Assembly (NCBI GenBank): GCA_036556695.1
Contig: DATBIY010000077.1
Span: 2,661 to 66,660 of the forward strand
Origin: Candidatus Limnocylindria bacterium
Lineage (GTDB): Bacteria; Chloroflexota; Limnocylindria; QHBO01
DNA length: 64,000 nucleotides
Reading direction: 5' to 3'
Shown: in pieces, positions 9,477 through 59,837 of the stretch
Layout: each line of letters begins with the position of its first letter
Position numbering within the stretch: position 1 is the stretch's first letter
The notes under the pieces: generated by a model
Seen by the model: the letters and a program-made list of their open reading frames with translations, nothing else
The model's database searches: none
Told to the model about the DNA's origin: nothing
Made by a program: the position numbers and the translations under genes

Positions 9477-11249
9477 TCAGAACGGGAAGACGATCGGGAT
9501 CAGGATTAGGCTCAGCGTGATGGTCACCACGTTGAGCGGCACGCCGACGCGCGAGAAGTCGCTGAACCGATAGCCCCCCAGCCCGTACACCATCAGGTTG
9601 GTCTGGTATCCCAGCGGTGTCAGGAACGAGAGGCTGGCGCCCATCATCACGGCGACCACGAACGGTCGCGGATCCGCGCCGATGGTCGCCGCGGCGGCTA
9701 CCGCGATGGGAAACATCAGTGCGGCGGCGGCGTTGTGCGACACCAGCTCGGTCAGGATGATCGTGGCGACCATGACCGCTGCCAGCGAGCCGATGTCGCC
9801 CAGCGGCGACATGGCGCTGACCAGGCCACCGGCCACCGCCTCGGCCAAGCCGCTGGACGAGACCGCCGCTCCCAGGCCGAATGCCGCGGCGATGAGCACC
9901 ACGATCTGCAGGTCGACCGCATCGCGCGCCTGGCGCAGGGTCAGGACGCGGGTAGCCACCACGACCATCGCTGCCGCCACCGAGGCGTGGAGGATCGGCA
10001 CCTGGCCGGATCCGGTGGCCAGGACGAAGCCAAGGCCCACGGCGGCGACCAGCCAGGCGCGTCGTGGCTGGCGCGGCGAGATGCCGGAGAGCGGCGCGAT
10101 GACGGCGAAGTCCGGTCGGTCGCGCCAGCGGGCGCGGAATTCCGCATCGGACAGGATCAGCAGCGTGTCGCCGACCCGCAGCGTCACGTCGCCCAACTTG
10201 GCATTGACCCGGTGGCCGGCGCGGTGGATGGCGATGACCGCGGCGTCGTAGCGCGCGCGGAAATCGACCTCCTTCAGCGTCTGGCCCACCATGTCGCCAC
10301 CGGCGCCCACCACCACCTCGTAGAAGGCGTGGACCGTCCCCGCCAGGTGACGGATCTGCCGCGCCTCGGCTGACGTCAGCCCGCGGACGCGCTGCAGGTC
10401 GACCACGTTGTCGACGCGACCCACGAAGGTCAGCAGGTCTCCGCCCTCCAGCCGCTCGTCCGGCGCCACCGGAGCGATGGAGCGGCCATCGCGCTGGATC
10501 TCCACCAGGAAGACGCCCTGCAGCTGGCGCAGCCCCGCTTCCGACACCGTGGCGCCGTCGGCCTCGCCGTTGCGCTTGACGCGCATGGTGACGGTGAAGT
10601 CGCGCCCTGCCTCCGACAGCTCGCCACTGACCGGGCTGCGGTCAGGCAGCAGGCGCGGGCTGAGGAAGACCACAGCAGCCACGCCGGCGATGGCAATCGG
10701 CAGGCCCACCAGCGTCGGCTCGAAGAGGCCGAGCGGCCGCATGCCGGCGTCGACCAGCAGGCCCGAAACGGTCAGGTTGGTCGAGGTGCCGATGGCCGTC
10801 ACCACGCCGCCGAGGATGGCGGCATAGCTGACGCCCATCAGAAACCGAGACGCGGGGAGGTTCCGCCGCGCCGAGATATCGACCACCGCCGGGATGGTCA
10901 TCGCCACCAGCGTCGTGTTGTTGACGAAAGCGCTGATGCCGGCCAGTGGGTAGAGGAGGCGGGCCAGGATGCCGGTTGACGATGCGGTGCCCCTGAAGAG
11001 GAGCGCCACGATGGGCTGCATGATGCCCGCCACGTCGATCGCACGTGCCACGATCAACAGGCTGGCGATGATGATCGGCGCCTCGTTGCTGAACCCGGCG
11101 AACGCCTGGTCGGGGGTGATGATGCCGATGAGCATCAGCACCAACGTCGCAGCCAGCACGGCCGGCGCCGGTGGCGCCTTCTCGGTGAAGAGCACGGTCA
11201 CCAGGACCGCCAGCACGGCCAGCGTGATCCAGGCGCCCAGCTCCATCAA
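9477..11249 (-). CDS. DASS/SLC13-family anion permease with two central TrkA-C domains; candidate sulfate importer
   Basis: About 12 TM segments flanking two TrkA-C-like cytoplasmic domains (MRVKRNGEADGATVSEAGLRQLQGVFLVEI...; RVNAKLGDVTLRVGDTLLILSDAEF), the architecture of ArsB/NhaD-clade citrate/sulfate transporters. Same strand as sat-cysC and 18 nt downstream of cysC, so probably co-transcribed. Confidence 0.7.
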   Translation of the reverse strand: MMELGAWITLAVLAVLVTVLFTEKAPPAPAVLAATLVLMLIGIITPDQAFAGFSNEAPIIIASLLIVARAIDVAGIMQPIVALLFRGTASSTGILARLLYPLAGISAFVNNTTLVAMTIPAVVDISARRNLPASRFLMGVSYAAILGGVVTAIGTSTNLTVSGLLVDAGMRPLGLFEPTLVGLPIAIAGVAAVVFLSPRLLPDRSPVSGELSEAGRDFTVTMRVKRNGEADGATVSEAGLRQLQGVFLVEIQRDGRSIAPVAPDERLEGGDLLTFVGRVDNVVDLQRVRGLTSAEARQIRHLAGTVHAFYEVVVGAGGDMVGQTLKEVDFRARYDAAVIAIHRAGHRVNAKLGDVTLRVGDTLLILSDAEFRARWRDRPDFAVIAPLSGISPRQPRRAWLVAAVGLGFVLATGSGQVPILHASVAAAMVVVATRVLTLRQARDAVDLQIVVLIAAAFGLGAAVSSSGLAEAVAGGLVSAMSPLGDIGSLAAVMVATIILTELVSHNAAAALMFPIAVAAAATIGADPRPFVVAVMMGASLSFLTPLGYQTNLMVYGLGGYRFSDFSRVGVPLNVVTITLSLILIPIVFPF

Positions 11250-11267
11250 CGGGTCACGAGGGCTGGC

Positions 11268-13114
<1,847 letters not shown>

Positions 13115-13239
13115 GCGGGAACTCTCCTCGTGAGCGGCGCCGGCCGGGGAAGTGGGCAGGCAGGTGCCGCGGGCATGAAACCGTATCTCGGGCGACGCGT
13201 ATCGTACAACGCCGCGGCCAGCCGGGGTAGGCTGCCGGC
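13115..13239. promoter_or_regulatory. Divergent intergenic region between the sat-cysC-permease operon (minus) and the sulfatase/NrnA/GT39/GtrA operon (plus); likely holds both promoters
   Basis: 125 bp non-coding gap separating divergently oriented start codons (sat TTG 13114, sulfatase ATG 13240). No specific operator was recognised. Confidence 0.3.
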
Positions 13240-14376
13240 ATGCGCACCCCGCCACGGCGCCGCAACACCGCCCTGGGCCGGATCCCCGCGGCGCTGGCCA
13301 TGGTCGCGGTGCTGGTGATCGGCGTCCCGCTGGCGAGCAGCGAGCGGAACGTCGGCGCCCGCTCGGCCGGCCGCCCACCGAACATCATCGTCATTCTCAC
13401 CGACGACCTTGACGTGGCGCTGTGGCGCAGCCTCCCCCTGTCCGGCGAGATCGGTGGCCACGACTTCGTCAACGCCTTCGTCACCTCTCCACTGTGCTGC
13501 CCGTCGAAGGCATCCACCCTGACCGGGCTGTATGCCCACAACCACCGCGTCTGGGCCACCGAGCCGCCGCAGGGCGGTCTGTACGCCGCGCTGCGCAGCG
13601 GCATGCAGGACTCCACGCTGCCCGTCTGGCTGCAGGACGCCGGCTACCGGACAGGCTTCATGGGCCGCTACCTGGTCGGCTACGGCTGGCGCGACTCGCC
13701 GCCCAGCTATGTGCCTCCCGGCTGGGACACCTGGATCGGCCGCGTTTCGAACACGGCGCACGGCTACCGCAACATCGAGTTCAGCTTCGACGGCCAGGTC
13801 CGCCGGCTGCGTGGCAACGAGTCAACGCATTTTCTGCCGCAGGCGCGCGACTTCATCCGCCGGGCTGGCGACCAGCCGTACTTCCTGCTGCTGGCGCCGA
13901 TGGCGCCGCATGCCCCCTGGGGAGGGGCGCGCTATCCGGGCGATCCGGCCAGGAGGCCGGGCATCATGCGTCCGATCGAGCACCTCGTCCGCCAGCTGCT
14001 GGCCGACATGGACGGCAGCACCTACCTGTTCTTCACCTCGGACAACGGCTACCACCTGGGGCCGCATCCTGGCAAGGCGACCCCGGCGGACACCGACACG
14101 CGCGTGCCGTTGTCGGTCGTGGGTCCCGACGTGGTGGAGGGCATGGATGAGCACTTCGCGTTGAACATCGACCTGGCGCCGACGATCGCCGAGCTGGCCG
14201 GCGTCGCGCCGCCGACACCGGTGGACGGCGTCTCGCTGGTGCCGCTGCTGCGTGGCCTGGACCCGCCGTGGCGCGACCGCTTCACGGTGGAGCTGCTGCC
14301 GTTCACCGCCGTGCGCAGCGCCGACCAGATCGAGATCCACTGGGCCGACGGTCGAACGGAGCGCCGCGCCCCCTGA
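13240..14376 (+). CDS. Arylsulfatase-family (alkaline-phosphatase superfamily) protein, secreted/membrane-anchored
   Basis: Signal/TM peptide; [10 protein letters not shown] followed by [23 protein letters not shown], which matches the sulfatase signature-I region. The FGly motif reads C-C-P-S-K (Lys in place of the conserved Arg). Confidence 0.65.
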
Positions 14377-14481
14377 GCCACCGGCGCGGGGCTGGTGGCT
14401 ACAATCTGCGCCCGGAACCTGAGCCGGCTGCACCCGCCGCAGGCCCGCTGCCCACTGACCACGTCACCATTGGAGGATCAT

Positions 14482-15480
14482 TTGGCCATCGCCACCGAGC
14501 ACCACAGCCAGCTCGCCGATGTCGCAGCCGCCGTGCGCGGCGCGCGGCGCATCACCGCCCTCTGCCACGAGAACCCCGACGCCGACACCATCGGTGCGGC
14601 GATCGCCATGGGCCTCATTGCCGAGCGGCTGGGCATCGAGCACGAGATCGTGAGCGTCGACGGCATCCCGCCGATGTTCGACTACCTGCCCCTGGTGGCC
14701 TCCGTGCGGGAGCGCCCGCGGCTGGAACCCGACCTGGCGGTCGTCTGCGACGCCGCAACCCTCGAGCGCGTGGGGCGCATCGCCACCGAGGAGGCGGCCT
14801 GGTTCGAGGGCGCGCGCCTGCTCAACGTGGATCACCACGTGAGCAGCACCTACTACGGCGACCTGAATCTGGTGGATCCAACGGCCGCCGCCACCTGCCA
14901 GGTTTTGCTCGAGCTGGTCGATGCCCTGGAGATCCCCCTCGACGCCCCGCTGGCCACCGCGCTGCTCACCGGCATCGTGCGCGACAGCCTGGGATTCTCG
15001 GATCGGGCCACCAACGGCACGACGCTGCGTGCCGCCGCGCGGCTGGTCGATGCCGGCGCGCCGCTGGCCCTCATCCACCGCACCATCCTGGCGGAGCTGC
15101 CCTTCCCCACCATGGCGCTGTGGGGCAAGATGCTTGCGGAGGTGGGAACCATCGCCGACGGTCGCGTGGTGCACACCACCCTGACGCTGGAGATGCTGAG
15201 CGAGACCGGAACGCAGCAGCACGACGCCGACGGCGTGGCGGAGTTCCTGGCGCGCGCCAAGGGGGCGGACGTGACGCTGCTGCTGCGTGAGTTGGGCGAC
15301 GCCGAGACACGGGTCAGCGTACGGACCTCGGAGCGGGTCGACGCCACGCGGGTGACCGCGCCATTCGGCGGCGGCGGCCACCGCTCGCGAGCGGGCGCCA
15401 CGGTCCGCCGCCACTGGCCCGAGGCGCGCGACGAGGTCCTGGCCGCCGCCGCCGCCGCGCTGGAGGATCTCCAGCGCTGA
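14482..15480 (+). CDS. DHH/DHHA1 phosphoesterase, NrnA-like (bifunctional oligoribonuclease / 3'-phosphoadenosine-5'-phosphate phosphatase)
   Basis: DHH motifs (CHENPDADTIGAAIA, DHH, GGGH...A near the C-terminus). Longest ORF starts at GTG 14395; TTG 14482 is preferred because GGAGGA lies 4 nt upstream and it gives a typical ~330-aa NrnA. Confidence 0.65.
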   Translation: MAIATEHHSQLADVAAAVRGARRITALCHENPDADTIGAAIAMGLIAERLGIEHEIVSVDGIPPMFDYLPLVASVRERPRLEPDLAVVCDAATLERVGRIATEEAAWFEGARLLNVDHHVSSTYYGDLNLVDPTAAATCQVLLELVDALEIPLDAPLATALLTGIVRDSLGFSDRATNGTTLRAAARLVDAGAPLALIHRTILAELPFPTMALWGKMLAEVGTIADGRVVHTTLTLEMLSETGTQQHDADGVAEFLARAKGADVTLLLRELGDAETRVSVRTSERVDATRVTAPFGGGGHRSRAGATVRRHWPEARDEVLAAAAAALEDLQR

Positions 15481-15488: not shown

Positions 15489-16913
15489 GTGGGGGAGGCC
15501 ACGGCGCGGAACGGCCTGCAGGAGCTGGGCTCGACGCTTCGCGCCTTCGGCTGGAAAGAGGGCCTGGCGCTCGCCGCTCCGGCCATCCTGCTGGCGGGAC
15601 TTGCGATCGGCGGGCTGGACCTCTTCAGCTTCTGGCGCGACGAGATCGCCAGCGTCGTCTTCTCGAAGCACTCGGTCCGCGAGCTGCTGATGGTCATCGA
15701 TCGCGAACGCAGCAAGGTCGGACTGGCCAACATGGCGACCTACTACCTGTTCCTCCACTTCTGGCTGAAGCTCGGCGAGGCCGAGGCGCAGGTGCGCCTG
15801 CTGTCCGTGGTATTCGGCGCGCTGACCGTCATCCCGGTGTACTTCCTGGCGCGGCGGCTGGCCAATTGGCCGGCTGGCCTGGCGGCCGCGCTGGTGTTCG
15901 CCCTGCACCCGGTGGTCATCCACTACGCCTACGAGGCGCGGGGCTACTCACTGGCCATGCTCATCACCGCCAGCCTGACGCTCCTGGTGCTGATCGCCAC
16001 CGAGCGGCGATCGGCGTGGCCCTGGCTGGCGTACGGCGTCATCGGGGCGCTGGGCCTGTACGTCCACTTCTTCATCGCACTGGTCATTGCCGCGCATGCC
16101 GGATGGGTGCTGGCCGCGCGCCGCTTCCCCGGCTGGCTGTCGGCGGCCGCGGTCACGCTGCCGCTGGTCGTCGCCGCCGCGCCGGTCCCGCTGATCATCA
16201 GGCAGTACGGCGGCGGGCACGGCTGGATCGCCGACCTGAGCCTGCATCAGCTGTGGGTCACCATGATCTCGCTCAGCGGCGGGGTGCTGCTGCTGGCGGC
16301 CCTGGGCCTGGCGGCCGTGGGGGCGGTGGCGCTGCGGCGCCGCGATCCCGGCACCTGGCTGTCGGTCGCCACCTTCGCCGTGCCGATCGTTGCCGACGTG
16401 ATCATGTCGATGTGGAAGCCGCTGCTGGTGGCTCGCTACCTGGTCATCTGCCTGCCACCATTCGCGGTCCTGGCCGGCGTCGGCATCGTTTCGCTGCCGC
16501 GCTGGCCGCTGCGCGCCCCGGCAGCCCTGCGCGCCGCCGCAGCCGTGGCGGTTGCCGCGCCGCTGCTGCTGGCCCTGCCATCGGCCTACGCCGACCAGCA
16601 CGGGCAGGACTGGCGAAGCCTGGCCGCCTGGATCGCCGAGGACGCGGCGCCGGGCGATCGCCTGCTGATCCGCAGGTGGGGTGCGCGCATGCTGGACTTC
16701 TACCTCGATCGCAGCGACGCTGATCCGCGACCGAAGGCCATATCGCGGGCCTTCGCTGATCGCCCACAGCCGGACGCCAGGGTGTGGCTGGTGCTTCGCG
16801 TCGAGGCCGATGTGCCCGACACGGTGCTGCTGGACCTGCGGGAGCACTACGACATCGTGGAGCAGCGCGAGTTCGGCCAAGCACTTCAGGCCTTCCTGCT
16901 CGGTCCGCGCTGA
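15489..16913 (+). CDS. GT39/GT83-like (PMT/ArnT-type) polyprenyl-phosphate-sugar-dependent membrane glycosyltransferase
   Basis: About 11 TM helices with N-terminal DE-containing loop (FSFWRDEIASV) and YYLFLHFWLKLG region typical of PMT_2/ArnT-like transferases; GTG start. Confidence 0.55.
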   Translation: MGEATARNGLQELGSTLRAFGWKEGLALAAPAILLAGLAIGGLDLFSFWRDEIASVVFSKHSVRELLMVIDRERSKVGLANMATYYLFLHFWLKLGEAEAQVRLLSVVFGALTVIPVYFLARRLANWPAGLAAALVFALHPVVIHYAYEARGYSLAMLITASLTLLVLIATERRSAWPWLAYGVIGALGLYVHFFIALVIAAHAGWVLAARRFPGWLSAAAVTLPLVVAAAPVPLIIRQYGGGHGWIADLSLHQLWVTMISLSGGVLLLAALGLAAVGAVALRRRDPGTWLSVATFAVPIVADVIMSMWKPLLVARYLVICLPPFAVLAGVGIVSLPRWPLRAPAALRAAAAVAVAAPLLLALPSAYADQHGQDWRSLAAWIAEDAAPGDRLLIRRWGARMLDFYLDRSDADPRPKAISRAFADRPQPDARVWLVLRVEADVPDTVLLDLREHYDIVEQREFGQALQAFLLGPR

Positions 16914-16950: not shown

Positions 16951-18547
16951 GAGGGAGACGGTGACCGTACCCGCGGGCCGACCATCCCGACCACGCACCT
17001 TCCGCGAGACGAGCACCCGGAGCCTGCTGCGCGCGTTGCTGCGGCCGTCGCGCTTCGCGGTGGTGGGCCTTATCGGCATCGGGGTCAACGCCCTGGCGCT
17101 GCTGGCCTTCACCGAGTGGCTGCACATCCACTACGCCGTGTCGGCGATCCTGGCATCGCAGGTCTCAACCCTCCACAACTTCGTGCTGACCGAGCTGTGG
17201 GTCTTCGGCGAGCGCGATTCGCGCGGGCACATTCTGGTCCGCTACCTGGCCTTCAACGCCCTGAACGTGAGCACCCTCCTCATCCGCGTCCCGGTGCTCG
17301 TCCTCTTCACCGAAGCTGCCGGGCTGCACTACCTGGTCTCGAACCTGATCGCCATCGGCGTGACGTTCGGTGTCCGCTACTTCATCGCCGACAACTGGAT
17401 CTGGGCGGGGCGCGATGCGCGCGACCAGACCGCGGTGGACGGTTGGTTCAACTATTCGATCCACGACCTGGTGCGCCTCCGCTCGCGCATCGCCCTGCCG
17501 GAGCTGGCCTCGTTCAACGTCGAGGAGGCGCTGCGGCCGGACATCGAGGTGGAGCGGCGCTCCCTGCTTGGCGGCTTCTTCCGTCTGAAGGTGCGCGTGA
17601 CGTCGGACGCATCGGTCATTTGCTATCGCGAACAGCTGGGCTTCCTTGGCGTCTCCTTCGACGTAAGGCTGGAGGAGCCGCTGCGGGTGGACGCCAACTG
17701 GCTGCTGGCGTGGTCGCACCACGTGCTCTACACCAACGTGGTCGAGCCCCTGTTGCGCTTCCACCTGGTGTCGCGCGGCGCCGTGCTGCTGCATGCCGCC
17801 TCGGTGGCCACCGAGCGCGGGGCGTTGCTCATGTCCGCGAAAACGGACACCGGCAAGACCAGCACCCTGCTGCGCCTGCTGATGCAGCACCCCTGGGCGT
17901 TCATGGGCGACGACATGGCCATCCTGCAGCCCGACGGCCGGGTGCTCTCCTACCCGAAGCCGATGACCCTCTCGTCGCACACCATGAATGCCGTCAACGA
18001 GCGCAGCCTGCCGTTCGCCGACCGCGTGATGCTCGCCATCCGAAGCCGCCTCCATTCGCGCCAGGGCCGATCGATTGGCCAGGCCATCGGCCGGCTGCCG
18101 GTGCCGATCGTGACCATCAACGCCGCCGTGCAGCTGCTGGTGCCGCCGCCGAAGTACCACGTCACCTCGCTGGTGGACTGTGAGCTGGCGTCGGAGGCGC
18201 CGATGGATGCAATCATCCTGATGGAGCGCGGGACGCCGGAGCTGCAGAGCGTGGAGCTGGAAGGAACGCTGGACCAGCTACTGGCGAACACCGAGGACGC
18301 GTACACCTTCCCACCCTTCGCCTGGTTCGCCCCGCACCTGCGCTTCGGGACGCTGGACGCCGCCGCGTTGCGCGCGCGGGAGCGCGAGATCCTGGCGGCG
18401 GCGGTCGCGCGGGCGCGGCGCTTCCGGCTGCGGGTGGAGGGACATGCCTGGGCGGAGGCTATCCCGGGGGTCGTGTCGGGATCCGGCGCGCCGACACCGG
18501 TGCCGGTCGCCGGGAAGGCGGTGGCGGCCGAGACCACGCCAACCTAG
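16951..18547 (+). CDS. Fusion protein: N-terminal GtrA-like 4-TM domain + C-terminal HPr-kinase-C-like P-loop domain
   Basis: The N-terminal 130 aa match the GtrA family (FAVVGLIGIGVNALALLAFTEWLHIHYAVSAILASQVSTLHNFVLTELWVFG). The C-terminal region has GAVLLHAASVATERGALLMSAKTDTGKTSTLLRLL...GDDMAI, resembling the HprK C-terminal / HprK-related kinase P-loop. Start GTG 16951 is tentative. Confidence 0.45.
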
Positions 18548-19773
18548 TCGCGGTCGCCGTCGTCCCGCGTGGCGTCCAGCCCGGCGAAGAGCTCGCGATG
18601 CGCCTCGTAGAAGGGCGCGAGCACGGCGCGGGCGCGGTACGGGTCGACGGCGCGCACCGCCTCCTGCCGCCGCTGCTCCGCCGGGGCGGCCAGCAGCCGG
18701 TCGATCGAGGCTGCCAGTGCGCTGGCGTCATGTTGCGCGGCCAGCTCCCCGCCGCCCTCGGCGAGCAGGCGTGGCACGCGGCCGACCGGCGTGCTGGCCA
18801 GCGGCAGGCCTGAGGCCAGCGCCTCGAGCGCGATTGTCGGTCCGGTCTCGTGCGCCGAGCTGAGGAGGAACAGGTCGGCCGCCTGCATCAGGCTGGCCAG
18901 CTGGTCCTGCCGCTGCGTCCCTGCGAACCGGACGCGGTCGGCAATGCCCGCCTCGGCGACGGCGCGCTCGGCCTGCACGCGCAGCTCGCCGTCCCCGGCC
19001 ATCACCAGGCCGGCGCCCGGCTGACCGAGGCGCCGGAAGGCCTCGATCGCCAGCAGCGGCTGCTTCTGCGTGTCGAAGCGCGCCGCCCAGAGGAGCAGCG
19101 GGCCGTCGGTGCCGAGCCCCAGCTCGTCGGCCATCCGCTCGCGCAGCGCGGCGCGCTCGTCCGGGCTCGCCGGCCCGAAGACCTCGTCGTCGAACCAGTT
19201 GGCCAGGAACTCGATCCGGTCCGCCAGCGCCGGGAAGCGGCGGCGGTACTCCTCGGCCGCCTCCTCGTTGACGGCGACGATGCGATCGACCCGTGGCAGG
19301 GTGAAGCGCTCGAGCGCGCCGAGCGCCGGCCCAAGGCGTCGCCAGCGGCTCTCGCTGCGGCCCGAGGTCAGCTGTCCGCTGGTCAGGTGGATGACCTGCA
19401 CCGTCGCCCAGCGCGACCCCAGGAAGGGCAGGGTTGTGCCCGGGCGATGGAACTGCAGCACGCGCGGTGTGCGGCTCAGGGATCGGCGTCGACGCGCCAG
19501 CTCGCGGGTGAACGCCAGCGCGACGGGAACGCGCGACCGGCGCTGCCCCGCCTGCGCGGCGACCAGCGGCAGCAGGCGCAGCCGGCGCTCGCCGAGCTGC
19601 GCATCGGTCCATTGGCCGACCGGGGCCCCCACGGCATCGGTGGTGATGCCGATGTGCTCCAGCACGAAGTCCTCCGGCGCGTACTTCACGAAGCCGCGGG
19701 CAAAGGTCTGGATGCCACCGATCTTCGAGCTGGCGAGGTCCGACGGCAGGACGATGGTGACGCGCGGCGCCAT
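18544..19773 (-). CDS. GT4-family glycosyltransferase
   Basis: GT-B C-terminal domain with the EX7E-like region (SSAHETGPTIALEALASGLPLAST). ATG 19773 overlaps the upstream stop (ATGA). The upstream half of the 809-aa track ORF is out-of-frame overlap with the preceding gene and is rejected. Confidence 0.75.
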   Translation of the reverse strand: MAPRVTIVLPSDLASSKIGGIQTFARGFVKYAPEDFVLEHIGITTDAVGAPVGQWTDAQLGERRLRLLPLVAAQAGQRRSRVPVALAFTRELARRRRSLSRTPRVLQFHRPGTTLPFLGSRWATVQVIHLTSGQLTSGRSESRWRRLGPALGALERFTLPRVDRIVAVNEEAAEEYRRRFPALADRIEFLANWFDDEVFGPASPDERAALRERMADELGLGTDGPLLLWAARFDTQKQPLLAIEAFRRLGQPGAGLVMAGDGELRVQAERAVAEAGIADRVRFAGTQRQDQLASLMQAADLFLLSSAHETGPTIALEALASGLPLASTPVGRVPRLLAEGGGELAAQHDASALAASIDRLLAAPAEQRRQEAVRAVDPYRARAVLAPFYEAHRELFAGLDATRDDGDRD

Positions 19774-21308
19774 CAGCCGGCGTCCGCGGTGGGCTGCCCC
19801 TGCTCGCGACGCATCCGCCAGGCGACTGCCGTGGCGGTGCCCAGGATGAGGAAGGTGAGGTAGGCCCGAGGCGGCGAGTGGTACATCGGGCTGGCCAGCG
19901 ACTCGATGCCGGCCTGAACCCAGATCATGGTCGCGCCGAGCAGGAAGATCCTGAGCGCGCCGCCCATCTGGCGCCGCAGCGACCGGAGCAGCACCAGCCC
20001 AATGGCCGCCAGCCACCCGGCATACGCCACCAGCCCCACCGCCCCGGTCTCCCCCAGGATCTGAGGCCAGAACGTGTCGGTCACGTTTCGCGGATCGTGC
20101 GGACGCAGGCCGCGGATCCTCGCGACGTCGTATTCGAAGTAGAGTGGACTGTAGTACTCCCGGCTCATCCAGCTGCCCCAGCGACCCAGCCCGGCGCCCA
20201 GCGGGAAGTTGTCGCGGGCGATCTCGGCGGCGCCCACGTACAGCGCGATGCGCACCTGGGGCGGCGCCTCCCCGTCGCCTTCGCCGAAGCCGTCGCCGGA
20301 GGCAGTGGGGTTGGGGGAGGGAGTGATGTAATTGACCACCGTCGAGTCCCACAGGGCCGACAGGGCGGGAATGAACACCACCAGGATGATGGCCATGGTG
20401 GCCCCCACCGGCGCCCAGCGGCGCGCGACGGCGGCCAGGGCTCGAGTTCGCCACCAGGAGGCGCCGAACGCGACGCCCAGCGCGGCCAGCAGCGCCAGGA
20501 TCGCCCGGCGCCGGGCACCGAGGAAGGGCCCCAGGCTCAGGAATCCGCCAATGAGCAGGAAGCGCCGCTTGTGGGTGACGGAATAGGCGGCGTAGGCCAG
20601 CAGCGCGACCAGCGCCGTGAACCAGGCGAACAGCACCGGGTGCACGAACACCGACTTGACGACGTACAGCGGTCCCCGAATGCGGAGGTACTCGTTCAGC
20701 CCGATGGCGTGCTGGAACGAGATCGGGTCGACCAGCTCGATGAACGAGGTGGCGACCAGCACCACGCCCATGCCCAGGAGGACCTTCAATCCGCCCCGCA
20801 GCTGGGCCGGTCGCGGCTCGACCGAGAGCGCCACGTAGAAGAAGGCCAGGCCCTTGAACACCAGCAGCAGCGTGGTGCCCCAGATCCGGATCGGCACCCC
20901 GCCCAGCAGACTCGACGCCACGCCGGCCAGCAGCAGCAGCACGATGGCCAGCTCGCGCGGCCACCAGAACCAATCGCGCCAGCGGGGCAGCAGCCGGAAT
21001 GCCGCCACCAGCCCCAGGCCGGCAATGGCGACCTCGTCCACGCGCCGGATGGGCTCGCCCAAGTGCCGCGCCAGGGTGTCGTAGAAGAGCACGAACAGGG
21101 CGAAGGCGAAGAGCCCGGCGGCCGGGAAGCGGATCGAGGACGCCACCAACAGCGCGGCCGCCAGGCCCACCGGCACGTAGCGCAGCAGGCCGTCATGCGG
21201 CAGCACGCTCCAGGCGATCCACGGCAGCAGGACGGCCAGCCCCAGGATGACGGCGAGCTGCACCAGGAAGGCGCGCTCCTCCTGCCGCTCGTCGGGTGCA
21301 GCGATCAC
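19773..21308 (-). CDS. O-antigen ligase/polymerase-like (Wzy/WaaL family) membrane protein
   Basis: About 12 TM helices with a large periplasmic loop (YITPSPNPTASGDGFGEGDGEAPP...), the O-antigen ligase domain pattern; 511 aa. Confidence 0.65.
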   Translation of the reverse strand: MIAAPDERQEERAFLVQLAVILGLAVLLPWIAWSVLPHDGLLRYVPVGLAAALLVASSIRFPAAGLFAFALFVLFYDTLARHLGEPIRRVDEVAIAGLGLVAAFRLLPRWRDWFWWPRELAIVLLLLAGVASSLLGGVPIRIWGTTLLLVFKGLAFFYVALSVEPRPAQLRGGLKVLLGMGVVLVATSFIELVDPISFQHAIGLNEYLRIRGPLYVVKSVFVHPVLFAWFTALVALLAYAAYSVTHKRRFLLIGGFLSLGPFLGARRRAILALLAALGVAFGASWWRTRALAAVARRWAPVGATMAIILVVFIPALSALWDSTVVNYITPSPNPTASGDGFGEGDGEAPPQVRIALYVGAAEIARDNFPLGAGLGRWGSWMSREYYSPLYFEYDVARIRGLRPHDPRNVTDTFWPQILGETGAVGLVAYAGWLAAIGLVLLRSLRRQMGGALRIFLLGATMIWVQAGIESLASPMYHSPPRAYLTFLILGTATAVAWRMRREQGQPTADAG

Positions 21309-22225
21309 GCGGCGGCGCTCCAGGCGGAGAGGTCGCGTTCCAGCAGTCGGCCGAGCCGCTCGACCTCCGGCGCGAACTCGGCCCGCAGGCGTCGTCGCAG
21401 CTGCGGATCCATGGGCGGCCGTCGCTCGGGGCGGGCGTTCATGTTGAGGACGGTGCGGAACACGCGCTTGCGCAGGTGCGGCGGCATGACGGCGCGCGCC
21501 ACGGCACGCAGGAAGCCGGGCGGGTTGGCGGCCACGTCTCGCACCAGCCGGCTGCGGCTGCGCTTGCTGGGATTGACCACCCGAATCGCGGGCTCGAAGG
21601 TGTCATCCACCTCCAGGAAGCGCAGCACGTCGCGAACGGCCGCCAGGGTATCGGCCTTGAAGTCGTCGTAGAGGATGACGTGCACGCGTTCCCTGCCCAG
21701 GGCGTCGAAGAAGCGCTCGACCTGCTCTGTATAGCGCGCTGAATCTCGGTACAGGAGCGCGACCGGTCGGTTGGCGCCGGGAGGGATGCGCCTCCCGCGA
21801 CGCCGGTCGTCCTCGGCGGCCAGTGCATCGGCGAAGTCCTCGATGTCCTCGGCGCCGATGAAGACCAGCTCGCTGTGCATCGCGTACATCATCTCAACTG
21901 GGTCGCGCAGCATGATGATCGCTCGTGCACCCGGGCTGAACTCGGCGATCTCTCGGGCCGCCAGGCGCGAATGCAGGTAGCGGACCGATGCCTCCCCCAC
22001 CCGCAACTCGTCCCGCGCGTCGGCGAAGTAGCGCAGGTACTCCCCGAGGGTCGGGCGCGGCGTGCGGCGGCGCTCCAGGTCGCTGCCGAAGTAGTGCAGC
22101 TCCTTGGCGGCCGGCAGGAAGATCTGCGGGTGCTGGCGCAGGTAGTCGTAGAGGGCGGTGGTGCCTGCCTTGGGAGCCCCGGGAATGAAGAAGTCCGGAC
22201 GGCGGGGGTTGGGCCGCGCGCTCAA
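21305..22225 (-). CDS. Carbohydrate sulfotransferase (Sulfotransfer_1/3, heparan-sulfate OST-like), paralog 2
   Basis: 5'-PSB motif FFIPGAPKAGTTALYDYL and 3'-PB motif IIMLRDPVEMMYAMHSE. Start assigned to TTG 22225, overlapping the upstream stop (TTGA); the 130-aa 5' extension in the track is spurious. Confidence 0.75.
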   Translation of the reverse strand: MSARPNPRRPDFFIPGAPKAGTTALYDYLRQHPQIFLPAAKELHYFGSDLERRRTPRPTLGEYLRYFADARDELRVGEASVRYLHSRLAAREIAEFSPGARAIIMLRDPVEMMYAMHSELVFIGAEDIEDFADALAAEDDRRRGRRIPPGANRPVALLYRDSARYTEQVERFFDALGRERVHVILYDDFKADTLAAVRDVLRFLEVDDTFEPAIRVVNPSKRSRSRLVRDVAANPPGFLRAVARAVMPPHLRKRVFRTVLNMNARPERRPPMDPQLRRRLRAEFAPEVERLGRLLERDLSAWSAAA

Positions 22226-23121
22226 GCCTGCCTCACCGCCGTCCAGGCGGAGAGGTCCCGCCCGATGACTCCAGCCAGGCGATCCACGTCGGGCGCGAAC
22301 TCGGCGGTGAGCCTGGCCCGCAGCTCGGCCGACATGCGCGGCCGCTCGGCGTAGCGGATGTTGGCCCGCTTCACCGCTCGGGAGACGGCGTGCGAGATCG
22401 GCCCGGGGAGGCGGTTGGTGACGGCCACGTAAGCCGGGTGGTAGGTGATGCGTCGCAGCAGCTCGGAGCGCACCCCCTTGTTCTGGTTCACCACCGAGAA
22501 GTCCGGCGCGAAGCTGGAATCCACCTCCAGAAACTCGAGCGTATCGCGGTAGGTGGCCGCGGCATCCGCGCTGAGGTCGTCGTACAGGATCACCTTGAGC
22601 TGCTCGGTGCCCCACACCTCGAGCCAGCGCTCGACGTGCTCGGCGTAGCGCCCGCAGGCCCGGTACAGCAGCCCCTCCGGCCTGCGCACGCCCGGCGGCA
22701 GTCGCCGGCCCTCGGCGCGGTCCGGCTCGGCGGCCAGCGCCTCCTCGAACTCGGCGATGTCCTCGTTGGCGGTGAAGAGCTGGTGGCTGTGCAGCGAGTG
22801 AACCATGTCGACCGGGTTGCGCAGCATGATGATGATCCGCGCGTCCGGCACGAAGTCACGTATCTCGCGAGCGGCCGTCTGTGAGTAGAGGTACCAGACC
22901 GTGGCCTCACCGCGCCGCGCACGGCCGGCTCCCGGCTCGAACAGCTCCCGATAGCCTGCCTCGTCCAGGTAGGGCTTCCGCTTCTGGAGGTCCGCGCCGA
23001 AATAGACCGGCTCCTTGCGCAGCGGCATGAACACGTCGGGATGCTGGCGCAGGTAGTCGTACATGGCCGTCGTACCGCAGCGGGGCGCGCCGGCGATGAA
23101 AAAGTTGGGGCCGGTTGTCAC
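22222..23121 (-). CDS. Carbohydrate sulfotransferase (heparan-sulfate OST-like), paralog 1
   Basis: FFIAGAPRCGTTAMYDYL (5'-PSB) and IIIMLRNPVDMVHSLHSH (3'-PB). Start GTG 23121 overlaps the TagF-like stop (GTGA). The 661-aa track ORF fuses it artefactually to an out-of-frame overlap of the upstream gene. Confidence 0.75.
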   Translation of the reverse strand: MTTGPNFFIAGAPRCGTTAMYDYLRQHPDVFMPLRKEPVYFGADLQKRKPYLDEAGYRELFEPGAGRARRGEATVWYLYSQTAAREIRDFVPDARIIIMLRNPVDMVHSLHSHQLFTANEDIAEFEEALAAEPDRAEGRRLPPGVRRPEGLLYRACGRYAEHVERWLEVWGTEQLKVILYDDLSADAAATYRDTLEFLEVDSSFAPDFSVVNQNKGVRSELLRRITYHPAYVAVTNRLPGPISHAVSRAVKRANIRYAERPRMSAELRARLTAEFAPDVDRLAGVIGRDLSAWTAVRQA

Positions 23122-24374
23122 TCGCCGGAGTTTAGGGTGAGCGTCGGACCGCTGCGCTCGGCGGCCGGTTCGAGCTCGAGGCCGATGCGCTCGGCCACGG
23201 CGCGCACGATGCGCTCCGAGCTTCCTGGCTCGTCGCGGTCCCGCTGCCGCTGGCGGATACGCCGCGCTGCGTCGCGCGCCTGGCGGTCGTCGCCGCGGGC
23301 GGATGCCGCCAGCGCTGGCAGCAGCGACTGCCACGTCTCGTGGTACGTCCCGCCGGTGAAGGCCTCGTAGGGCTCGTACAGCCCCAGCCCGCCGCGGTAG
23401 GCGGCCAGGTCTGGCGCGAAGAAATGGATGGGCCGATCGAGCAGCGCGTAATCCGACGCGGCGCTGGAGTAGTCGGTCAGCAGCGCATCGCCGACGCGCA
23501 GCAGGGCGTTGGGGTCGACGTCCCGCTGGTCGAGCAGCCGGATCCTGGGGTGCTCGGGCAGGCGCCCGCGAAACACGGCCTGATCGGCGTAGGGATGCGG
23601 CTTGATGGCCAGCAGCGCCGGCGTGCCGGCGAGGTGGCGGTCGAGGGCGTCGGCGTCGAGGGCCGGCAGCCAGCCGGCGTCGCCCTCGTCGCGCCAAGTG
23701 GGCAGCCACAGCACCACGTACGCGTCGGCGGGGAGTCCGAGACGCTGCCGCAGGTCCCTGCCACCCACCCGGTCCAGCGCCTCGGCACCAAGGATCACGT
23801 CGAAGCGCGGCGTTCCCAGCGCCACGACTTTGCGCTCCGGCGCAGCGAACGCCGTCTTGAACCGTTCCTTGCCCAGCTCGCCCTGGGCGATCACCAGGTC
23901 GACCTGGCCCAGGCGCCGCGCGACCAGCCAGCGGCGCAGGCGGGCAACCATGCGCCGCCGCCAGGACGATGCCCGCAGTTCCGGATCGTCCATGTCCAGC
24001 AGGATCTTCTTGTTCGGCATGCCGTGCCGCATGTCGACCACGAAGGCGCCGCCCAGGTACGCGGCTTCCACGTCCTGGAAGCCGCTGGACAGGAAGGCGA
24101 CCCGCGCCCGCGACTGGACATCGTGAGCCTCGGGGCTGCCGCGTCGGGCGACGCGCAGGCCGGCAGCCCGGGCGGCACCGGCCTCCGCGTCGCTGCGTGC
24201 GATCCACCAGGCCTCGATCTGCGGATGTGCGTGGGCCACGTGCTCCGCCAGGTAGCGCGAGTTGTCAGCGAAGCCCTTGACGCTGCCAAAAACCCAGGTG
24301 CGCGGGTCGCGATGACGGAGGTGCCCGAGGACGTAGCGCGCGGCGACTCGTCCGCGCCGCAGGGCATCAGCCAC
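23118..24374 (-). CDS. CDP-glycerol:glycan glycerophosphotransferase (TagB/TagF family)
   Basis: LTDYSSAASDYALLDRPIHFFAPDL and IKPHPY regions are characteristic of the Glyphos_transf (TagF) domain; 418 aa. Confidence 0.7.
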   Translation of the reverse strand: MADALRRGRVAARYVLGHLRHRDPRTWVFGSVKGFADNSRYLAEHVAHAHPQIEAWWIARSDAEAGAARAAGLRVARRGSPEAHDVQSRARVAFLSSGFQDVEAAYLGGAFVVDMRHGMPNKKILLDMDDPELRASSWRRRMVARLRRWLVARRLGQVDLVIAQGELGKERFKTAFAAPERKVVALGTPRFDVILGAEALDRVGGRDLRQRLGLPADAYVVLWLPTWRDEGDAGWLPALDADALDRHLAGTPALLAIKPHPYADQAVFRGRLPEHPRIRLLDQRDVDPNALLRVGDALLTDYSSAASDYALLDRPIHFFAPDLAAYRGGLGLYEPYEAFTGGTYHETWQSLLPALAASARGDDRQARDAARRIRQRQRDRDEPGSSERIVRAVAERIGLELEPAAERSGPTLTLNSGE

Positions 24375-25296
24375 CGGCGGCCACGCCTTCGGCCGCGGGC
24401 CTGTGTGGCACGCGCTGCTCTCGCCAGGCGGGCAGCGGGTGGAGCAACTCCTCCACGTAGCGGATGTCCGGCTCGAACAGCTCGGTCATGCGGCGCCAGA
24501 CGTCCGGGGCCAGCTCCGGGTAGGCCGTGCGCCGCAGGTTCAGCAGATCCAGCCGTCCACGAACGTCGCGCGCCCTGTGGCGCAGGCCGGCTGGCAGGAA
24601 GGTCCAGCGCATGCGCTTCGTCCGGCGCAGCAGCCCGTGCACCAGCGACGAGGCCGGCTTGCCATGCGGGTTGTACTCGCGGTGGTACTCGGCGTGGAAG
24701 CTGTCATCCACGCCAATGAAGCGGCAGACCTCGCGATAGGTGCGCGCCGGATCCGCCCGGAAGTCGTCGAAGGTGGCGACGTACACCCGCTCCGGCCCGA
24801 AGGCCTCGCGGTAGCGCTGCAGGTGCTCGGCATAGCGGCTGACATAGTCCAGGTAGCGCAGCTGCGGGTCGTCGTCCAGGATCGCCTCGAACGGCGGCAG
24901 GCGGTGGCCGTTCTTGCGGTAGTGCCAGTAGTGCGAGTACGCGCGATCCACCGGCTGGCGCAGCACGAAGATGATGCGCAGCCCCGGAACGTGGCGCTCC
25001 ATCAGCTCCGGCGCATCGCGGGCGCAGAGGTAGTGCGTGCTGGCCTCGCCGCGCGCCGCACGGCCCTCGCCGCCCTCGAACAGGCTTTCGTACCAGTCCA
25101 TGCCGCGGGCATAGCTATCCGGGCGCGGCCGGCCCACGATCCGCACCCCGGGCGCGGGCTCGCTCACCTCGCGGGTGAAGAAGTGCGGCTCCTTGAAGGC
25201 GGTCATGAACACGTCCGGGTGCTCGCGCAGCATGCCCCACAGGGCGGTGGTCCCCGATTTCGGCGCGCCACCGATGACGAAGGTCGGAAGGGTCAC
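24367..25296 (-). CDS. Carbohydrate sulfotransferase (heparan-sulfate OST-like), paralog 3
   Basis: FVIGGAPKSGTTALWGML (5'-PSB) and IIFVLRQPVDRAYSHYWH (3'-PB); 309 aa; overlaps the downstream gene start by 8 nt. Confidence 0.8.
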   Translation of the reverse strand: MTLPTFVIGGAPKSGTTALWGMLREHPDVFMTAFKEPHFFTREVSEPAPGVRIVGRPRPDSYARGMDWYESLFEGGEGRAARGEASTHYLCARDAPELMERHVPGLRIIFVLRQPVDRAYSHYWHYRKNGHRLPPFEAILDDDPQLRYLDYVSRYAEHLQRYREAFGPERVYVATFDDFRADPARTYREVCRFIGVDDSFHAEYHREYNPHGKPASSLVHGLLRRTKRMRWTFLPAGLRHRARDVRGRLDLLNLRRTAYPELAPDVWRRMTELFEPDIRYVEELLHPLPAWREQRVPHRPAAEGVAAGG

Positions 25297-25328
25297 CCGG
25301 CCATCTTAGGGCGAGCGCTGAGATGGCC

Positions 25329-26912: not shown

Positions 26913-26982
26913 GCGCTCTCCTCGTCGGATGAAGTCGGGTTGGAGTGTAGCCGCGAGGGAGCGACGCTAGGCTTGCCGCTGC

Positions 26983-29299: not shown

Positions 29300-29315
29300 G
29301 GGTCGCGCCGGCACG

Positions 29316-34535: not shown

Positions 34536-34570
34536 CGTCCGGTCGCCGCCGGCCGGCCCTGCCAGGCCGC

Positions 34571-57795: not shown

Positions 57796-58566
57796 TCAGT
57801 GGCGCCGAAACACCTCGACCATGGCGCTCAGCCGCAGCCGCAGCACCATGAGCAGGGCCTCGGCCACGATGCTGGTGGTCATCTTCGAGTGCCCCGCCAC
57901 GCGCTCGCGAAAGATGATCGGGATCTGCGTGATCTTCGAGCCGCGGCGATGGGCCCACCATGTCATCTCGACCTGGAATCCGTACCCGCTGGCGTTCGCG
58001 TCACGCAGGCGAATGGCCTCCAGCAGCTCGCGCCGCCACGCCTTGAAGCCACCGGTCAGGTCGCGGTACGGCAGCAGCAGAACGGTGCGTGCGAACATCG
58101 TGCCGGCCCGGCTGATCAGCCTGCGCCGCAGTGGCCAGCCGACCGTGTCGCCGCCGCGGATGTAGCGCGTTCCGAGGACCAGGTCCGAATCGCGCATGAG
58201 CGGCGCCAGCAGGCGCGGCAGGTCCTTCGGGTCGTGGCTGAAGTCGGCGTCCATCTGAACGATGGCCTTCACCCCGGGCTGGCCGAGCGCCCAGCGGAAG
58301 CCGTGCCGGTACGCGGCGCCCAGCCCTTCCTTGGCAGCGCGGTGCAGGACCTGCACCCGCGGCTCCTGGGCGGCGATGGTGTCGGCCAGGATGCCGGTCC
58401 CGTCGGGTGAGCTGTCGTCAACGACCAGCAGCTCCGCCTCGGGCAGCGCCTCCAGGATGGCGGCGCTGATGCCCTCCAGGTTCTCGCGCTCGTTGTAGGT
58501 GGGCAGCACCACCCACACGCCGCGGCCCGCTGCCAGGCCGACCCGGGCCGGTGGCTCCTCGGTCAT
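57796..58566 (-). CDS. GT2 polyprenyl-phosphate glycosyltransferase (dolichol-P-mannose synthase / Ppm1-like)
   Basis: VVLPTYNERENL...LVVDDSSPDGT...QMDADFSHDP motifs of DPM1-like GT2 enzymes; 256 aa from the internal ATG 58566. Confidence 0.75.
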   Translation of the reverse strand: MTEEPPARVGLAAGRGVWVVLPTYNERENLEGISAAILEALPEAELLVVDDSSPDGTGILADTIAAQEPRVQVLHRAAKEGLGAAYRHGFRWALGQPGVKAIVQMDADFSHDPKDLPRLLAPLMRDSDLVLGTRYIRGGDTVGWPLRRRLISRAGTMFARTVLLLPYRDLTGGFKAWRRELLEAIRLRDANASGYGFQVEMTWWAHRRGSKITQIPIIFRERVAGHSKMTTSIVAEALLMVLRLRLSAMVEVFRRH

Positions 58567-59837
58567 CGCCCGACACCCAGGTAGCCCTTTCCGGCTGCCC
58601 GGATGACGGCCGGATCCAGCACGTTGCGCCCGTCGACCACCAGCTCCAGGCCGGGCAGCCGCGCGAAGTCGAGATCGCGAAACTGCGGGTGATCGGCCTG
58701 CAGGATCAGCGCGCGGACCGGCGCCGGGTCGTTTGGCGTCCACGGCGCGAAGCCATGGGCCGCCAGCTCATCGGCCGAGAAAAGCGGATCGTAACCGTGC
58801 ACCTGCGCTCCGGCAGCCTGCAGGGCATCGCGCAGCGCAAACGCCGAGCTGAAGGCATCCTCGCGCACGCCGCCACGGTACGCGATGCCCAGCACCAGCA
58901 CGGGCTGCTCGCGCAGGCTGCCGATCTGGTGCTCCATGGCGCTGACCGTCCAGGCTGCCATGCCGTCGTTGATCTGCCGCGCGGCGCGGGGCAGCTGCAG
59001 GTCGGGAGCATCGGCGAAGAGGAAGTGCGGGTAGACCGGGATGCAATGCCCGCCGACGCCGACCCCCGGCAGGTGGACGTGGCTGTAGGGCTGCGAGTTG
59101 GCCGCGTCGATGACCTCCATCACGTCGATCCCGCGCTCGGCGGCATAGCGCGCGTACTCGTTGGCCAGCGCGATATTCACGTCACGGTAGGTCGTCTCGG
59201 CCAGCTTCGTCATCTCGGCTGCCTCGGCGCTCGACAGAACGCGGATCTCGGTTCCCGGATCGAGCGCCTGCTCGTAGAAGGCGCGGGCTCGCGCGGTCGA
59301 CTCTGGGCCGATGCCGCCCACCACCTTCGGATAGCGGCGCAGGTCGAGCAGCACGCGACCGACCAGCACCCGCTCCGGCGAGAAGGCCACGAACAGGTCG
59401 CGCTCTGCCGACAGGCCGCTGCCCTGCTCCAGGATGGGCGTCAGCCGGTCACGGGTGGTCCCCACCGGCACTGTGGTCTCGAACACGACCAGCACGCCTG
59501 CGCCGATACCGTGGCTGATGTCGCGCGTCGCGGCGTCGATGGCGCGGAAGTCGATCCTGCGCGCCTCGTCGACCAGCACCGGCACGATGATGACCACCCC
59601 CTCCGCGTCTCGGACGCCGTCCGTGCCGTCGGTAGTGGCTCGCAGACGTCCGCTGGCGACCAGCTCCGGCACGAGCTCGTCCACCTCGCGCTCTCCGGGG
59701 TGCGGCGGGATGCCGGCGTTGACCGCCGCCACGATGCGCTCGTCGATGTCGCAGCCCACCACCTGATGGCCGCGCGAGGCGTACTGCACGGCCAGCGGCA
59801 GGCCGATCTGGCCCAGGCCGACGATGGCGACCCTCAT
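58563..59837 (-). CDS. UDP-N-acetyl-D-hexosamine 6-dehydrogenase (WbpA/WecC-like nucleotide-sugar dehydrogenase)
   Basis: MRVAIVGLGQIGLPLA Rossmann motif, catalytic GGHCIPV, UDPG_MGDP_dh C-terminal domain. Confidence 0.8.
   Translation of the reverse strand: MRVAIVGLGQIGLPLAVQYASRGHQVVGCDIDERIVAAVNAGIPPHPGEREVDELVPELVASGRLRATTDGTDGVRDAEGVVIIVPVLVDEARRIDFRAIDAATRDISHGIGAGVLVVFETTVPVGTTRDRLTPILEQGSGLSAERDLFVAFSPERVLVGRVLLDLRRYPKVVGGIGPESTARARAFYEQALDPGTEIRVLSSAEAAEMTKLAETTYRDVNIALANEYARYAAERGIDVMEVIDAANSQPYSHVHLPGVGVGGHCIPVYPHFLFADAPDLQLPRAARQINDGMAAWTVSAMEHQIGSLREQPVLVLGIAYRGGVREDAFSSAFALRDALQAAGAQVHGYDPLFSADELAAHGFAPWTPNDPAPVRALILQADHPQFRDLDFARLPGLELVVDGRNVLDPAVIRAAGKGYLGVGR

Follow-up and report, generated by a model that had tools for sequence, protein, structure and literature searches.

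Within a 64,000-nucleotide stretch of DNA from a Candidatus Limnocylindria bacterium (contig DATBIY010000077.1; this whole stretch is called the window hereafter), a gene located on the + strand at 16961..18547 encodes a protein of 528 amino acids, GtrA-X, in which a four-helix transmembrane (TM) domain of the GtrA type is followed by a domain of about 360 residues, designated domain X. Judged from its predicted fold and its conserved motifs, domain X is a new family of the superfamily that comprises phosphoenolpyruvate carboxykinase (PEPCK) and HPr kinase (HprK), in which the phosphoryl-transfer apparatus is apparently kept and the site devoted to the second substrate is different. Owing to its fusions with GT2, GtrA and PMT_2 modules, its occurrence in a same-strand gene cassette and its fold, we consider it moderately probable that domain X acts as a membrane-tethered, ATP-dependent phosphotransferase in glycosylation by polyprenyl-phosphate-sugars, following the pathway and the chemistry proposed below; the catalytic activity of X, its use of ATP and its substrate are the parts of this proposal that we infer.

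Domain X (residues 150-512, 17408..18496, + strand) is assigned to the P-loop phosphotransferase-like domains of the PEPCK/HprK superfamily from an AlphaFold2 (AF2) model, Foldseek and hhalign. The model of X alone (pLDDT 85, pTM 0.86), when compared to the Protein Data Bank (PDB) with Foldseek, yields 37 top matches which are all PEP carboxykinases, mostly ATP-dependent, with E-values of 3e-7 to 5e-4 over ~410 columns. The HPr kinase/phosphorylase (1kkl; E ~1e-3, ~160 columns) comes after them, and the full-length model ranks these structures alike. With respect to sequence families, a Pfam scan assigns no family to X at E<=1, neither PEPCK_ATP nor Hpr_kinase_C, and the best NCBIfam match, to HprK_rel_A (TIGR04352, E 3.6e-8), reaches 32.8 bits vs a cut-off of 200 and is confined to positions 95-170 of the 280 of the profile. 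Weaker matches to ScmC (TIGR04249, 18 bits vs a cut-off of 125) and HprK_rel_B (TIGR04355, 16.9 bits vs 200) similarly concern the P-loop region, and the Pfam family Hpr_kinase_C (PF07475) is matched by relatives of X with 14.8-23.5 bits vs a gathering score of 33.3 (E 4e-5 to 0.02). The precomputed PF27840 label carried by many homologues corresponds to ScmC and is flagged as weak or faint. Searches of the PDB sequences with the family profiles retrieved only the TM domain of a dolichyl-phosphate mannose synthase (DPMS), and nothing for X at E<=10. Since PEPCK and then HprK head the fold comparison and no curated family is matched above its threshold, X is best viewed as a new family of this superfamily. 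An earlier note on this DNA had likened the C-terminal region to the C-terminal domain of HPr kinase. The likeness holds at the level of the superfamily, where it is clear by fold and weak by sequence, but the 360-residue domain, taken whole, is closer to ATP-dependent PEPCK and stays under the cut-offs of HprK_rel_A, ScmC and Hpr_kinase_C. The AlphaFold modelling suggested in the same note, evaluated here with Foldseek, revealed no unrelated fold, PEPCK and HprK/P being both matched. The C-terminal domain is unannotated: the databases name only the GtrA part or misname the protein.

ATP-dependent PEPCK (PckA; PDB codes 1yvy, 1aq2, 2py7) thus resembles X over the whole domain (E 3e-7, ~410 columns) and displays the same order of motifs, namely a His, a P-loop GKT, an hhhGDD and a Y-x-K. 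X differs from PckA by a sequence identity of 12-14%, by being some 180 residues shorter, by the missing Pfam PEPCK_ATP match and by a gap, in the hhalign alignment, opposite the GGEMKK segment of PckA, which binds oxaloacetate/PEP and whose K212 and K213 are part of the oxaloacetate and Mn site. Moreover, PckA belongs to central carbon metabolism whereas the fusion partners and neighbours of X are membrane glycosylation modules. As for the HPr kinase C-terminal domain and the HprK_rel_A, HprK_rel_B and ScmC proteins, they belong to the same superfamily and match X near the P-loop and the DD pair, but X possesses an additional N-terminal β lobe and C-terminal helices and occurs in a different genomic context; HprK-related kinases are tied to lasso-peptide, exosortase and SynChlorMet loci. 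An alternative would be that X is an HprK-type serine kinase acting on a protein or a peptide, e.g., an O-glycosylation target or a regulator. HprK relatives are indeed the sole sequence-family matches of X (HprK_rel_A, more weakly ScmC and HprK_rel_B, and Hpr_kinase_C in relatives), Foldseek retrieves HprK/P at E ~1e-3, and enzymes of the PMT family can glycosylate Ser/Thr residues of proteins. However, these matches stay far under the curated cut-offs and cover ~75 of the 360 residues, the whole-domain fold is that of PEPCK with an extra N-terminal lobe missing from HprK-C, no phosphotransferase-system, RiPP (peptide made by ribosomes and modified after translation) precursor, lasso cyclase or exosortase gene occurs in the neighbourhoods examined, and the modules to which X is steadily fused, GT2, GtrA and PMT_2, speak for a substrate that is a lipid or lies in the membrane, so that a protein kinase of this type appears unlikely.

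The motifs expected for phosphoryl transfer were followed in 81 complete X domains, which share 28-61% identity with the window protein (median 38%). The stretch MSAKTDTGKTSTLLRLL, located at residues 291-307, contains the Walker A motif A293-K-T-D-T-G-K-T300 (17837..17860, + strand), which fits the pattern [AG]xxxxGK[ST], aligns with the GLSGTGKT of PckA, is invariant in 54 close homologues and is conserved at 93-96% over the 81 domains. The GDDMAI string (residues 316-321) opens with the kinase-2-like G316-D317-D318 (17906..17914, +), in which D317 (98%) and D318 (96%) align with D268/D269 of the LIGDD motif of PckA. Upstream of the P-loop, His278 of the LLH motif (17792..17794, +; 99% conserved) is aligned with His232 of PckA and, downstream, Y331-P-K333-P334 (17951..17962, +) contains a lysine aligned with Lys288 of PckA, P332, K333 and P334 being conserved at 96-98%. 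The hhalign pairing consequently reads LLH278/MH232, SAKTDTGKT/GLSGTGKT (K299/T300 facing K254/T255), FMGDD/LIGDD and YPK333/YAK288, and the aligned PckA residues (H232, K254/T255, D268/D269 and K288) bind ATP and the two metals. H278, K299, T300, D317, D318 and K333 are conserved at 94-99%, and A293, D296, T297 and G298 also belong to the positions conserved at 90% or more. About 40 further residues of X reach this level; they are mostly polar and comprise H254, Y257, N259, E262, R266, T336, S338, H340, T341, H365, S366, R370, N387, Q391, K398, N443 and D446, more than 30 of the polar ones lying outside of the nucleotide site. Within the Limnocylindria clade, the mean column identity of X is 73%. 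The conservation across the 81 domains is of the kind expected from a working enzyme that recognises a specific, polar second substrate.

An inactive X, serving as a nucleotide-binding regulatory or scaffold domain that organises a complex of GT2, TM and GT-C partners, would agree with the shuffling of the GT2, GtrA, X and PMT_2 modules, which suggests a physical complex, and with the start of the P-loop, which is Ala/Ser-rich (SAxTDTGKT) in place of the GxxGxGK of PEPCK and HprK. The 94-99% conservation of the Walker A Lys and Thr, the GDD aspartates, His278 and Lys333 among domains that are only 28-61% identical is nevertheless expected for catalysis rather than for simple binding, and we give a scaffold role a low probability.

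The N-terminal part of GtrA-X consists of a GtrA/DPMS-type four-helix TM domain (residues 31-148, 17051..17404, + strand), recognized by the Pfam family PF04138 (GtrA_DPMS_TM) with 73.5 bits vs a cut-off of 26.1 (E 2e-20) over the full profile (1-117). The profile built from 54 family members matches one solved structure in the PDB, the TM domain of the Pyrococcus furiosus DPMS (5mlz, E 1.5e-16), and Foldseek similarly aligns the full-length AF2 model (pLDDT 82.8, pTM 0.75) to 5mlz/9ep0 with 34-36% identity over ~120 columns. The TM helices of the model span residues 31-53, 58-81, 91-119 and 124-146, with pLDDT values of 81-97. Seven arginines occur in the 30 N-terminal residues and three in the loop 82-95, while the loops 54-57 and 120-123 contain none; according to the positive-inside rule, this distribution along the modelled helices places both termini, and hence domain X, on the cytoplasmic side of the predicted structure. 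With its 528 residues, 360 of which form the C-terminal domain, GtrA-X does not belong to the classical small stand-alone GtrA proteins of ~120 residues. It also differs from DPMS, with which the TM domain is homologous, by the lack of a GT2 domain and by the position of the soluble domain, which follows the TM domain in the window protein and precedes it in DPMS; many X proteins, however, possess a full GT2+TM unit ahead of X. In synthases of the DPMS type, the four-helix module sits beside the polyprenyl-phosphate acceptor. GtrA proteins have been widely proposed to flip undecaprenyl-phosphate-glucose, which is an established hypothesis even for the canonical GtrA.

A profile restricted to X, run against 1.84 billion cluster representatives, retrieved 1,993 proteins at E<=1e-3, 469 at E<=1e-10 and 188 at E<=1e-30. 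Among the best 150 matches, whose architectures were determined by Pfam scans and local HMMs, 77 contain X alone (many are fragments and about a dozen, of 345-390 residues, seem complete), 27 correspond to GtrA+X, 23 to GT2+GtrA+X and 11 to GT2+X. Rarer combinations comprise GtrA+X+PMT_2 (3/150), X+X and GtrA+X+X (2/150 each), and single occurrences of GT2+GtrA+X+PMT_2 (P0130, 1,310 residues), X+PMT_2, X+GtrA, GT2+X+GtrA and GtrA+GtrA+X. PMT_2 is found fused to X in P0121, P0178 and P0130. The fusion that had been regarded as an unusual architecture is thus one form of a widespread and shuffled set of four modules, GT2, GtrA, X and PMT_2.

The direct fusion of X to the TM domain in at least 27 of the 150 representatives, the NWIWAGRD junction motif that is invariant in the close family, and the flippase activity commonly attributed to GtrA could also be taken to mean that X is an ATPase which powers or gates the translocation of the polyprenyl-phosphate-sugar by the TM domain, without any phosphate transfer to a substrate. 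We hold this to be improbable. All known proteins with the PEPCK/HprK fold are phosphotransferases, none being a transport motor, X occurs in TM-less GT2+X fusions (11/150) and commonly as a stand-alone protein, and the more than 30 polar residues conserved at 90% or more outside the nucleotide site suggest a specific second substrate.

Outside of the Limnocylindria, 61 loci in which X is at most ~50% identical to that of the window were collected by gene-by-gene look-ups and a metagenome scan, and counted wherever enough flanking sequence was available. The genes are arranged on the same strand in the order GT2, GtrA, X, a GT-C glycosyltransferase of the PMT/PMT_2 type and a phosphoesterase of the PF04185 family. 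GtrA lies directly upstream of X in 43 of 48 loci and GT2 upstream in 23 of 29, while PMT2 follows X in 23 of 28 and PF04185 in 15 of 22. Depending on the locus, the TM module is joined to GT2 (L058), to X (as in the window) or to PMT (L059). The PF04185 proteins of the cassettes exhibit signal-peptide-like N-termini; this family comprises phospholipase C and acid phosphatase members, and its genes occur after the PMT gene at 8801-10132 in L058, 11069-12406 in L059, 9657-10982 in L056 and 10295-11569 in L055. Conserved unannotated proteins of 400-740 residues are encoded further downstream, together with a GH99/GH71-like gene in L056 and L058. One cassette is flanked by GDP-mannose-pyrophosphorylase-like, PGI/PMI and GH99/GH71-like genes, which hints at mannose as the sugar.

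Taken as a membrane-tethered phosphotransferase, X would operate as follows. In this polytopic inner-membrane protein, the GtrA/DPMS-type TM domain would tether the cytoplasmic domain X to the inner membrane face, where a DPMS-type GT2 would make a polyprenyl-phosphate-hexose; the lipid-linked sugar would then cross the membrane, the PMT/PMT_2 GT-C enzyme would transfer the sugar to an acceptor outside and, in complete cassettes, the secreted PF04185 phosphoesterase would act last. At the cytoplasmic face, X would move the γ-phosphate of ATP onto a polyprenyl-linked substrate, which may be of two kinds. Either X works as a polyprenol kinase, by which the acceptor of GT2 is supplied or recycled, the PF04185 enzyme dephosphorylating the spent carrier outside, or X phosphorylates the sugar of the polyprenyl-phosphate-hexose and this phosphate is trimmed outside after the transfer. 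A kinase inside and a phosphatase outside fit both versions, and the conserved polar residues favour a sugar head group by a small margin. In the window, the GT-C partner would be the PMT_2 encoded upstream, the GT2 would be encoded elsewhere (a candidate lies at 57796-58569) and the acceptor would probably be a sulfated polysaccharide or another envelope component produced by the locus. The role on a lipid-linked intermediate that the earlier note had put forward is compatible with the fusions and the synteny.

Several points weigh against this proposal. The TM-scores of X vs PEPCK in the Foldseek comparison are moderate (0.42-0.50 on the query, with a root-mean-square deviation of ~9-10 A), and the sequence similarity is weak, the hhalign comparison of X profiles with Escherichia coli PckA giving E ~3e-4 and a probability of 37-41%. 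In the Limnocylindria loci, neither a GT2 nor a PF04185 gene is found within 10 kb of GtrA-X and about half of the loci have no adjacent PMT_2, so that the link of this clade to the pathway is carried by the TM domain fused to X, by the neighbouring PMT_2 and by the homology to the cassettes. With regard to the lipid-alcohol version, transfer by a GT-C enzyme frees the carrier as polyprenyl-phosphate, which makes a polyprenol kinase formally unneeded, and a sugar head group would match the conserved polar residues of X equally well as a lipid alcohol, or better. Finally, no paper was found on any member of the family, whose function is proposed here from sequence comparison and structure modelling.

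In the most elaborate form of the lipid version, X and PF04185 would constitute a dedicated carrier-lipid cycle: the spent carrier would be dephosphorylated outside, the polyprenol, being neutral, would return without a flippase, and X, a polyprenol kinase of the soluble PEPCK fold type, would phosphorylate it again beside GT2. We regard this cycle as rather unlikely. If true, it would represent a new class of polyprenol-phosphorylating enzymes and an ATP-driven answer to the return of the spent carrier; among the polyprenol and dolichol kinases, only the known membrane kinases were found in the literature.

The gene itself corresponds to a single continuous open reading frame (ORF) on the + strand, extending from 16961 to 18547 with its stop codon. 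Because an AGGGAG-like motif occurs just 5' of the GTG codon at 16961 and the N-termini of aligned homologues agree with it, conservation beginning at about residue 12 of the 528-residue form, this codon is taken as the start; it lies 48 nt past the stop of the upstream PMT_2 gene. Position 16951, from which the earlier note counts, is out of frame with this ORF. The longest possible ORF, which begins at GTG 16784 and would encode 587 residues, was rejected, since it overlaps by 130 nt the PMT_2 gene, which ends at 16913, and extends beyond the region conserved in the homologues. A metagenome protein, P0001, is 100% identical to the product. At the stop codons, the gene overlaps by 4 nt (18544-18547) a convergent GT4 gene (18544-19809, - strand). 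The G+C content of the window is ~70%.

In a word-indexed search, over 1,000 proteins reached E<=1e-3; the best 120 are 56-100% identical to GtrA-X and align with 81% or more of its length, and both domains occur in most of them. The association of a GtrA-type domain and a P-loop/GDD domain in one protein, previously read from the sequence, is confirmed by the single ORF, the Pfam GtrA match and the presence of both quoted strings. The fusion does not result from a frameshift or a mis-assembly joining two genes, since the ORF is unbroken and the architecture is kept in more than 100 full-length homologues and in 52 genomes. The homologues are labelled "GtrA family protein", "putative flippase GtrA" or "dolichol-phosphate mannosyltransferase". 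As the window protein contains no GT2 domain and only its DPMS-like TM domain explains the name, the last label, used by JGI, is to be seen as a mis-annotation on the basis of the predicted domains. In the genome collection, GtrA-X is encoded by 52 species-level loci, nearly all of which belong to metagenome-assembled genomes (MAGs) labelled Candidatus Limnocylindria/Limnocylindrales, Chloroflexia or Chloroflexota. Three loci (L008, L021 and L033) come from two MAGs labelled "Steroidobacteraceae" (Gammaproteobacteria), with 68-69% identity to the Limnocylindria protein on contigs of 67-71% G+C; these occurrences are probably due to binning contamination rather than to horizontal transfer.

In the window, GtrA-X is the last gene of a tightly packed run on the + strand, after genes for a sulfatase-family protein with an N-terminal signal or anchor (13240-14376), an NrnA-like DHH phosphoesterase, i.e., a phosphatase of 3'-phosphoadenosine 5'-phosphate (PAP) (14377-15480), and the PMT_2 GT-C glycosyltransferase (15489..16913; Pfam PMT_2, E 7.6e-12), its likely functional partner. 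The arrangement of the window thus combines a GtrA fused to X with a PMT_2 on the same strand, and PMT_2 is directly upstream of GtrA-X in 23 of 54 Limnocylindria loci. Two tandem PMT_2 genes, vs one in the window, precede GtrA-X in its closest relatives, namely L003 (7113-9522), L006 (7131-9513), L007 (7-1981), L046 (7162-9526), L064, L066 and L067. No PF04185 homologue occurs in the window, and its sole DPMS-like GT2 is located 40 kb away from GtrA-X, outside the operon. This TM-less GT2 of the polyprenyl-phosphate type (257 residues, 57796..58569, - strand; Pfam Glycos_transf_2, E 4e-31) has PpgS, AglJ, Dol-P hexose transferase and ArnC as best NCBIfam matches, all below cut-off, and shares 45% identity with the GT2 domain of the GT2+GtrA+X fusion P0165. 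It is a candidate synthase partner, and one may speculate that it is a split-off synthase that could dock on the TM domain of GtrA-X.

The sulfatase-family protein displays the active-site signature C-C-P-S-K in place of the usual formylglycine motif C-x-P-x-R, the Arg being replaced by a Lys. Its best NCBIfam matches include the phosphoric/sulfuric ester hydrolase PehA, for which reason its substrate may be other than a sulfate ester. The idea that it stands in locally for the PF04185 phosphoesterase is unsupported, as it was detected beside the gene in only one of the five closest related loci.

The surroundings of the gene are rich in sulfation functions. A CitMHS/TrkA_C transporter (9480-11267, -), a canonical APS (adenosine 5'-phosphosulfate) kinase CysC (11271-11900, -) and an ATP sulfurylase with a PUA domain (11939-13384, -) precede the sulfatase and the PAP phosphatase, and three sulfotransferases are encoded at 21308-22615 (-), 24370-25305 (-) and 26971-27915 (+). 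The pathway for the supply and use of PAPS (3'-phosphoadenosine 5'-phosphosulfate) is accordingly complete in the window (9480-15480 and 21308-27915), and its gene content predicts a sulfated polysaccharide in this bacterium. The presence of a sulfate transporter, ATP sulfurylase, sulfatase, PAP phosphatase and three sulfotransferases around the gene, in the window as in its closest relatives, could suggest that X itself serves sulfation, either as a kinase of the APS/PAPS type or as a kinase acting on the sulfated glycan. The window nevertheless possesses its own APS kinase (NF002059, 278 bits vs a cut-off of 244), and most homologues reside elsewhere, between hflX and a PALP gene or in the GT2-GtrA-X-PMT-PF04185 cassette, without the sulfation genes of the window wherever these were compared or annotated. 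The reading of X as a sulfation enzyme, an APS kinase included, was consequently rejected, and any role in sulfation is very improbable. The sulfation context is common only to the closest relatives (L003, L004, L006, L007 and L046), the gene lying between hflX and the PALP gene in most other Limnocylindria; the sulfation setting, to which the function had been related at first, is thus incidental, being limited to the sub-clade of the window, where the locus has its own APS kinase, while the conserved partners of X elsewhere are a DPMS-type GT2, a GT-C enzyme and a PF04185 phosphoesterase.

The run that ends with GtrA-X and the sulfation genes are part of a polysaccharide locus, which further comprises a priming phosphoglycosyltransferase, a Wzx-like flippase, a UDP-glucose dehydrogenase, the GT4 glycosyltransferase, two AT3-SGNH acyltransferases (29148-31403, +, and 32607-34973, -), a CDP-glycerol glycerophosphotransferase (23121-24374, -) and a glycerol-3-phosphate dehydrogenase (34977-35966, -). 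The acyltransferase and glycerol-phosphate genes suggest that the predicted glycan may also be O-acylated and bear glycerol-phosphate. Between the GT4 and a sulfotransferase gene, a hydrophobic protein of 511 residues (19776-21308, -) is recognised by neither Pfam nor NCBIfam and, from its place in the locus, may be a Wzy-like polymerase or a ligase of an unrecognised family. At the very beginning of the window, from which it runs off, an ORF of 225 residues (3-677, +) without any Pfam match is probably coding according to its third-position G+C of 0.95.

With respect to the systems described to date, the cassettes follow the logic of gtrABC, which associates the membrane protein GtrA, the GT2 polyprenyl-phosphate-glucose synthase GtrB and the GT-C enzyme GtrC, and that of the actinobacterial Ppm1/Pmt, with the module types GT2, GtrA-type TM and GT-C in one operon. 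They differ from both by two undescribed additions: domain X, which is PEPCK-like, and a secreted phosphoesterase of the PF04185 family that is usually present. In the library searched, no paper was found that links GtrA with an HPr-kinase-like or a PEPCK-like domain or that describes the cassette, X is named in no source looked up, and the cluster look-ups gave no informative names. The system type built from a GT2 synthase, a GtrA-type module and a GT-C enzyme is therefore well known, whereas no description was found of the additional conserved domain, a putative ATP-phosphotransferase, or of the phosphoesterase that accompanies it.

To our knowledge, glycosylation by polyprenyl-phosphate-sugars, as in gtrABC, Ppm/Pmt, ArnC/ArnT and the Dol-P-Man pathways of archaea and eukaryotes, relies on a GT2, a poorly understood translocation and a GT-C enzyme, and the scheme includes no ATP-dependent step. 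The repeated fusion of X to all three modules, usually with the gene of a secreted phosphoesterase after them, and the intact catalytic residues of X together imply an unrecognised step of phosphorylation and dephosphorylation around the lipid carrier or the sugar, in Chloroflexota that are abundant in soils and freshwater. If confirmed, this would give the PEPCK/HprK fold a new class of substrates, put right thousands of annotations that read "GtrA" or "dolichol-phosphate mannosyltransferase", and offer a route into the recycling or the flipping of carrier lipids.

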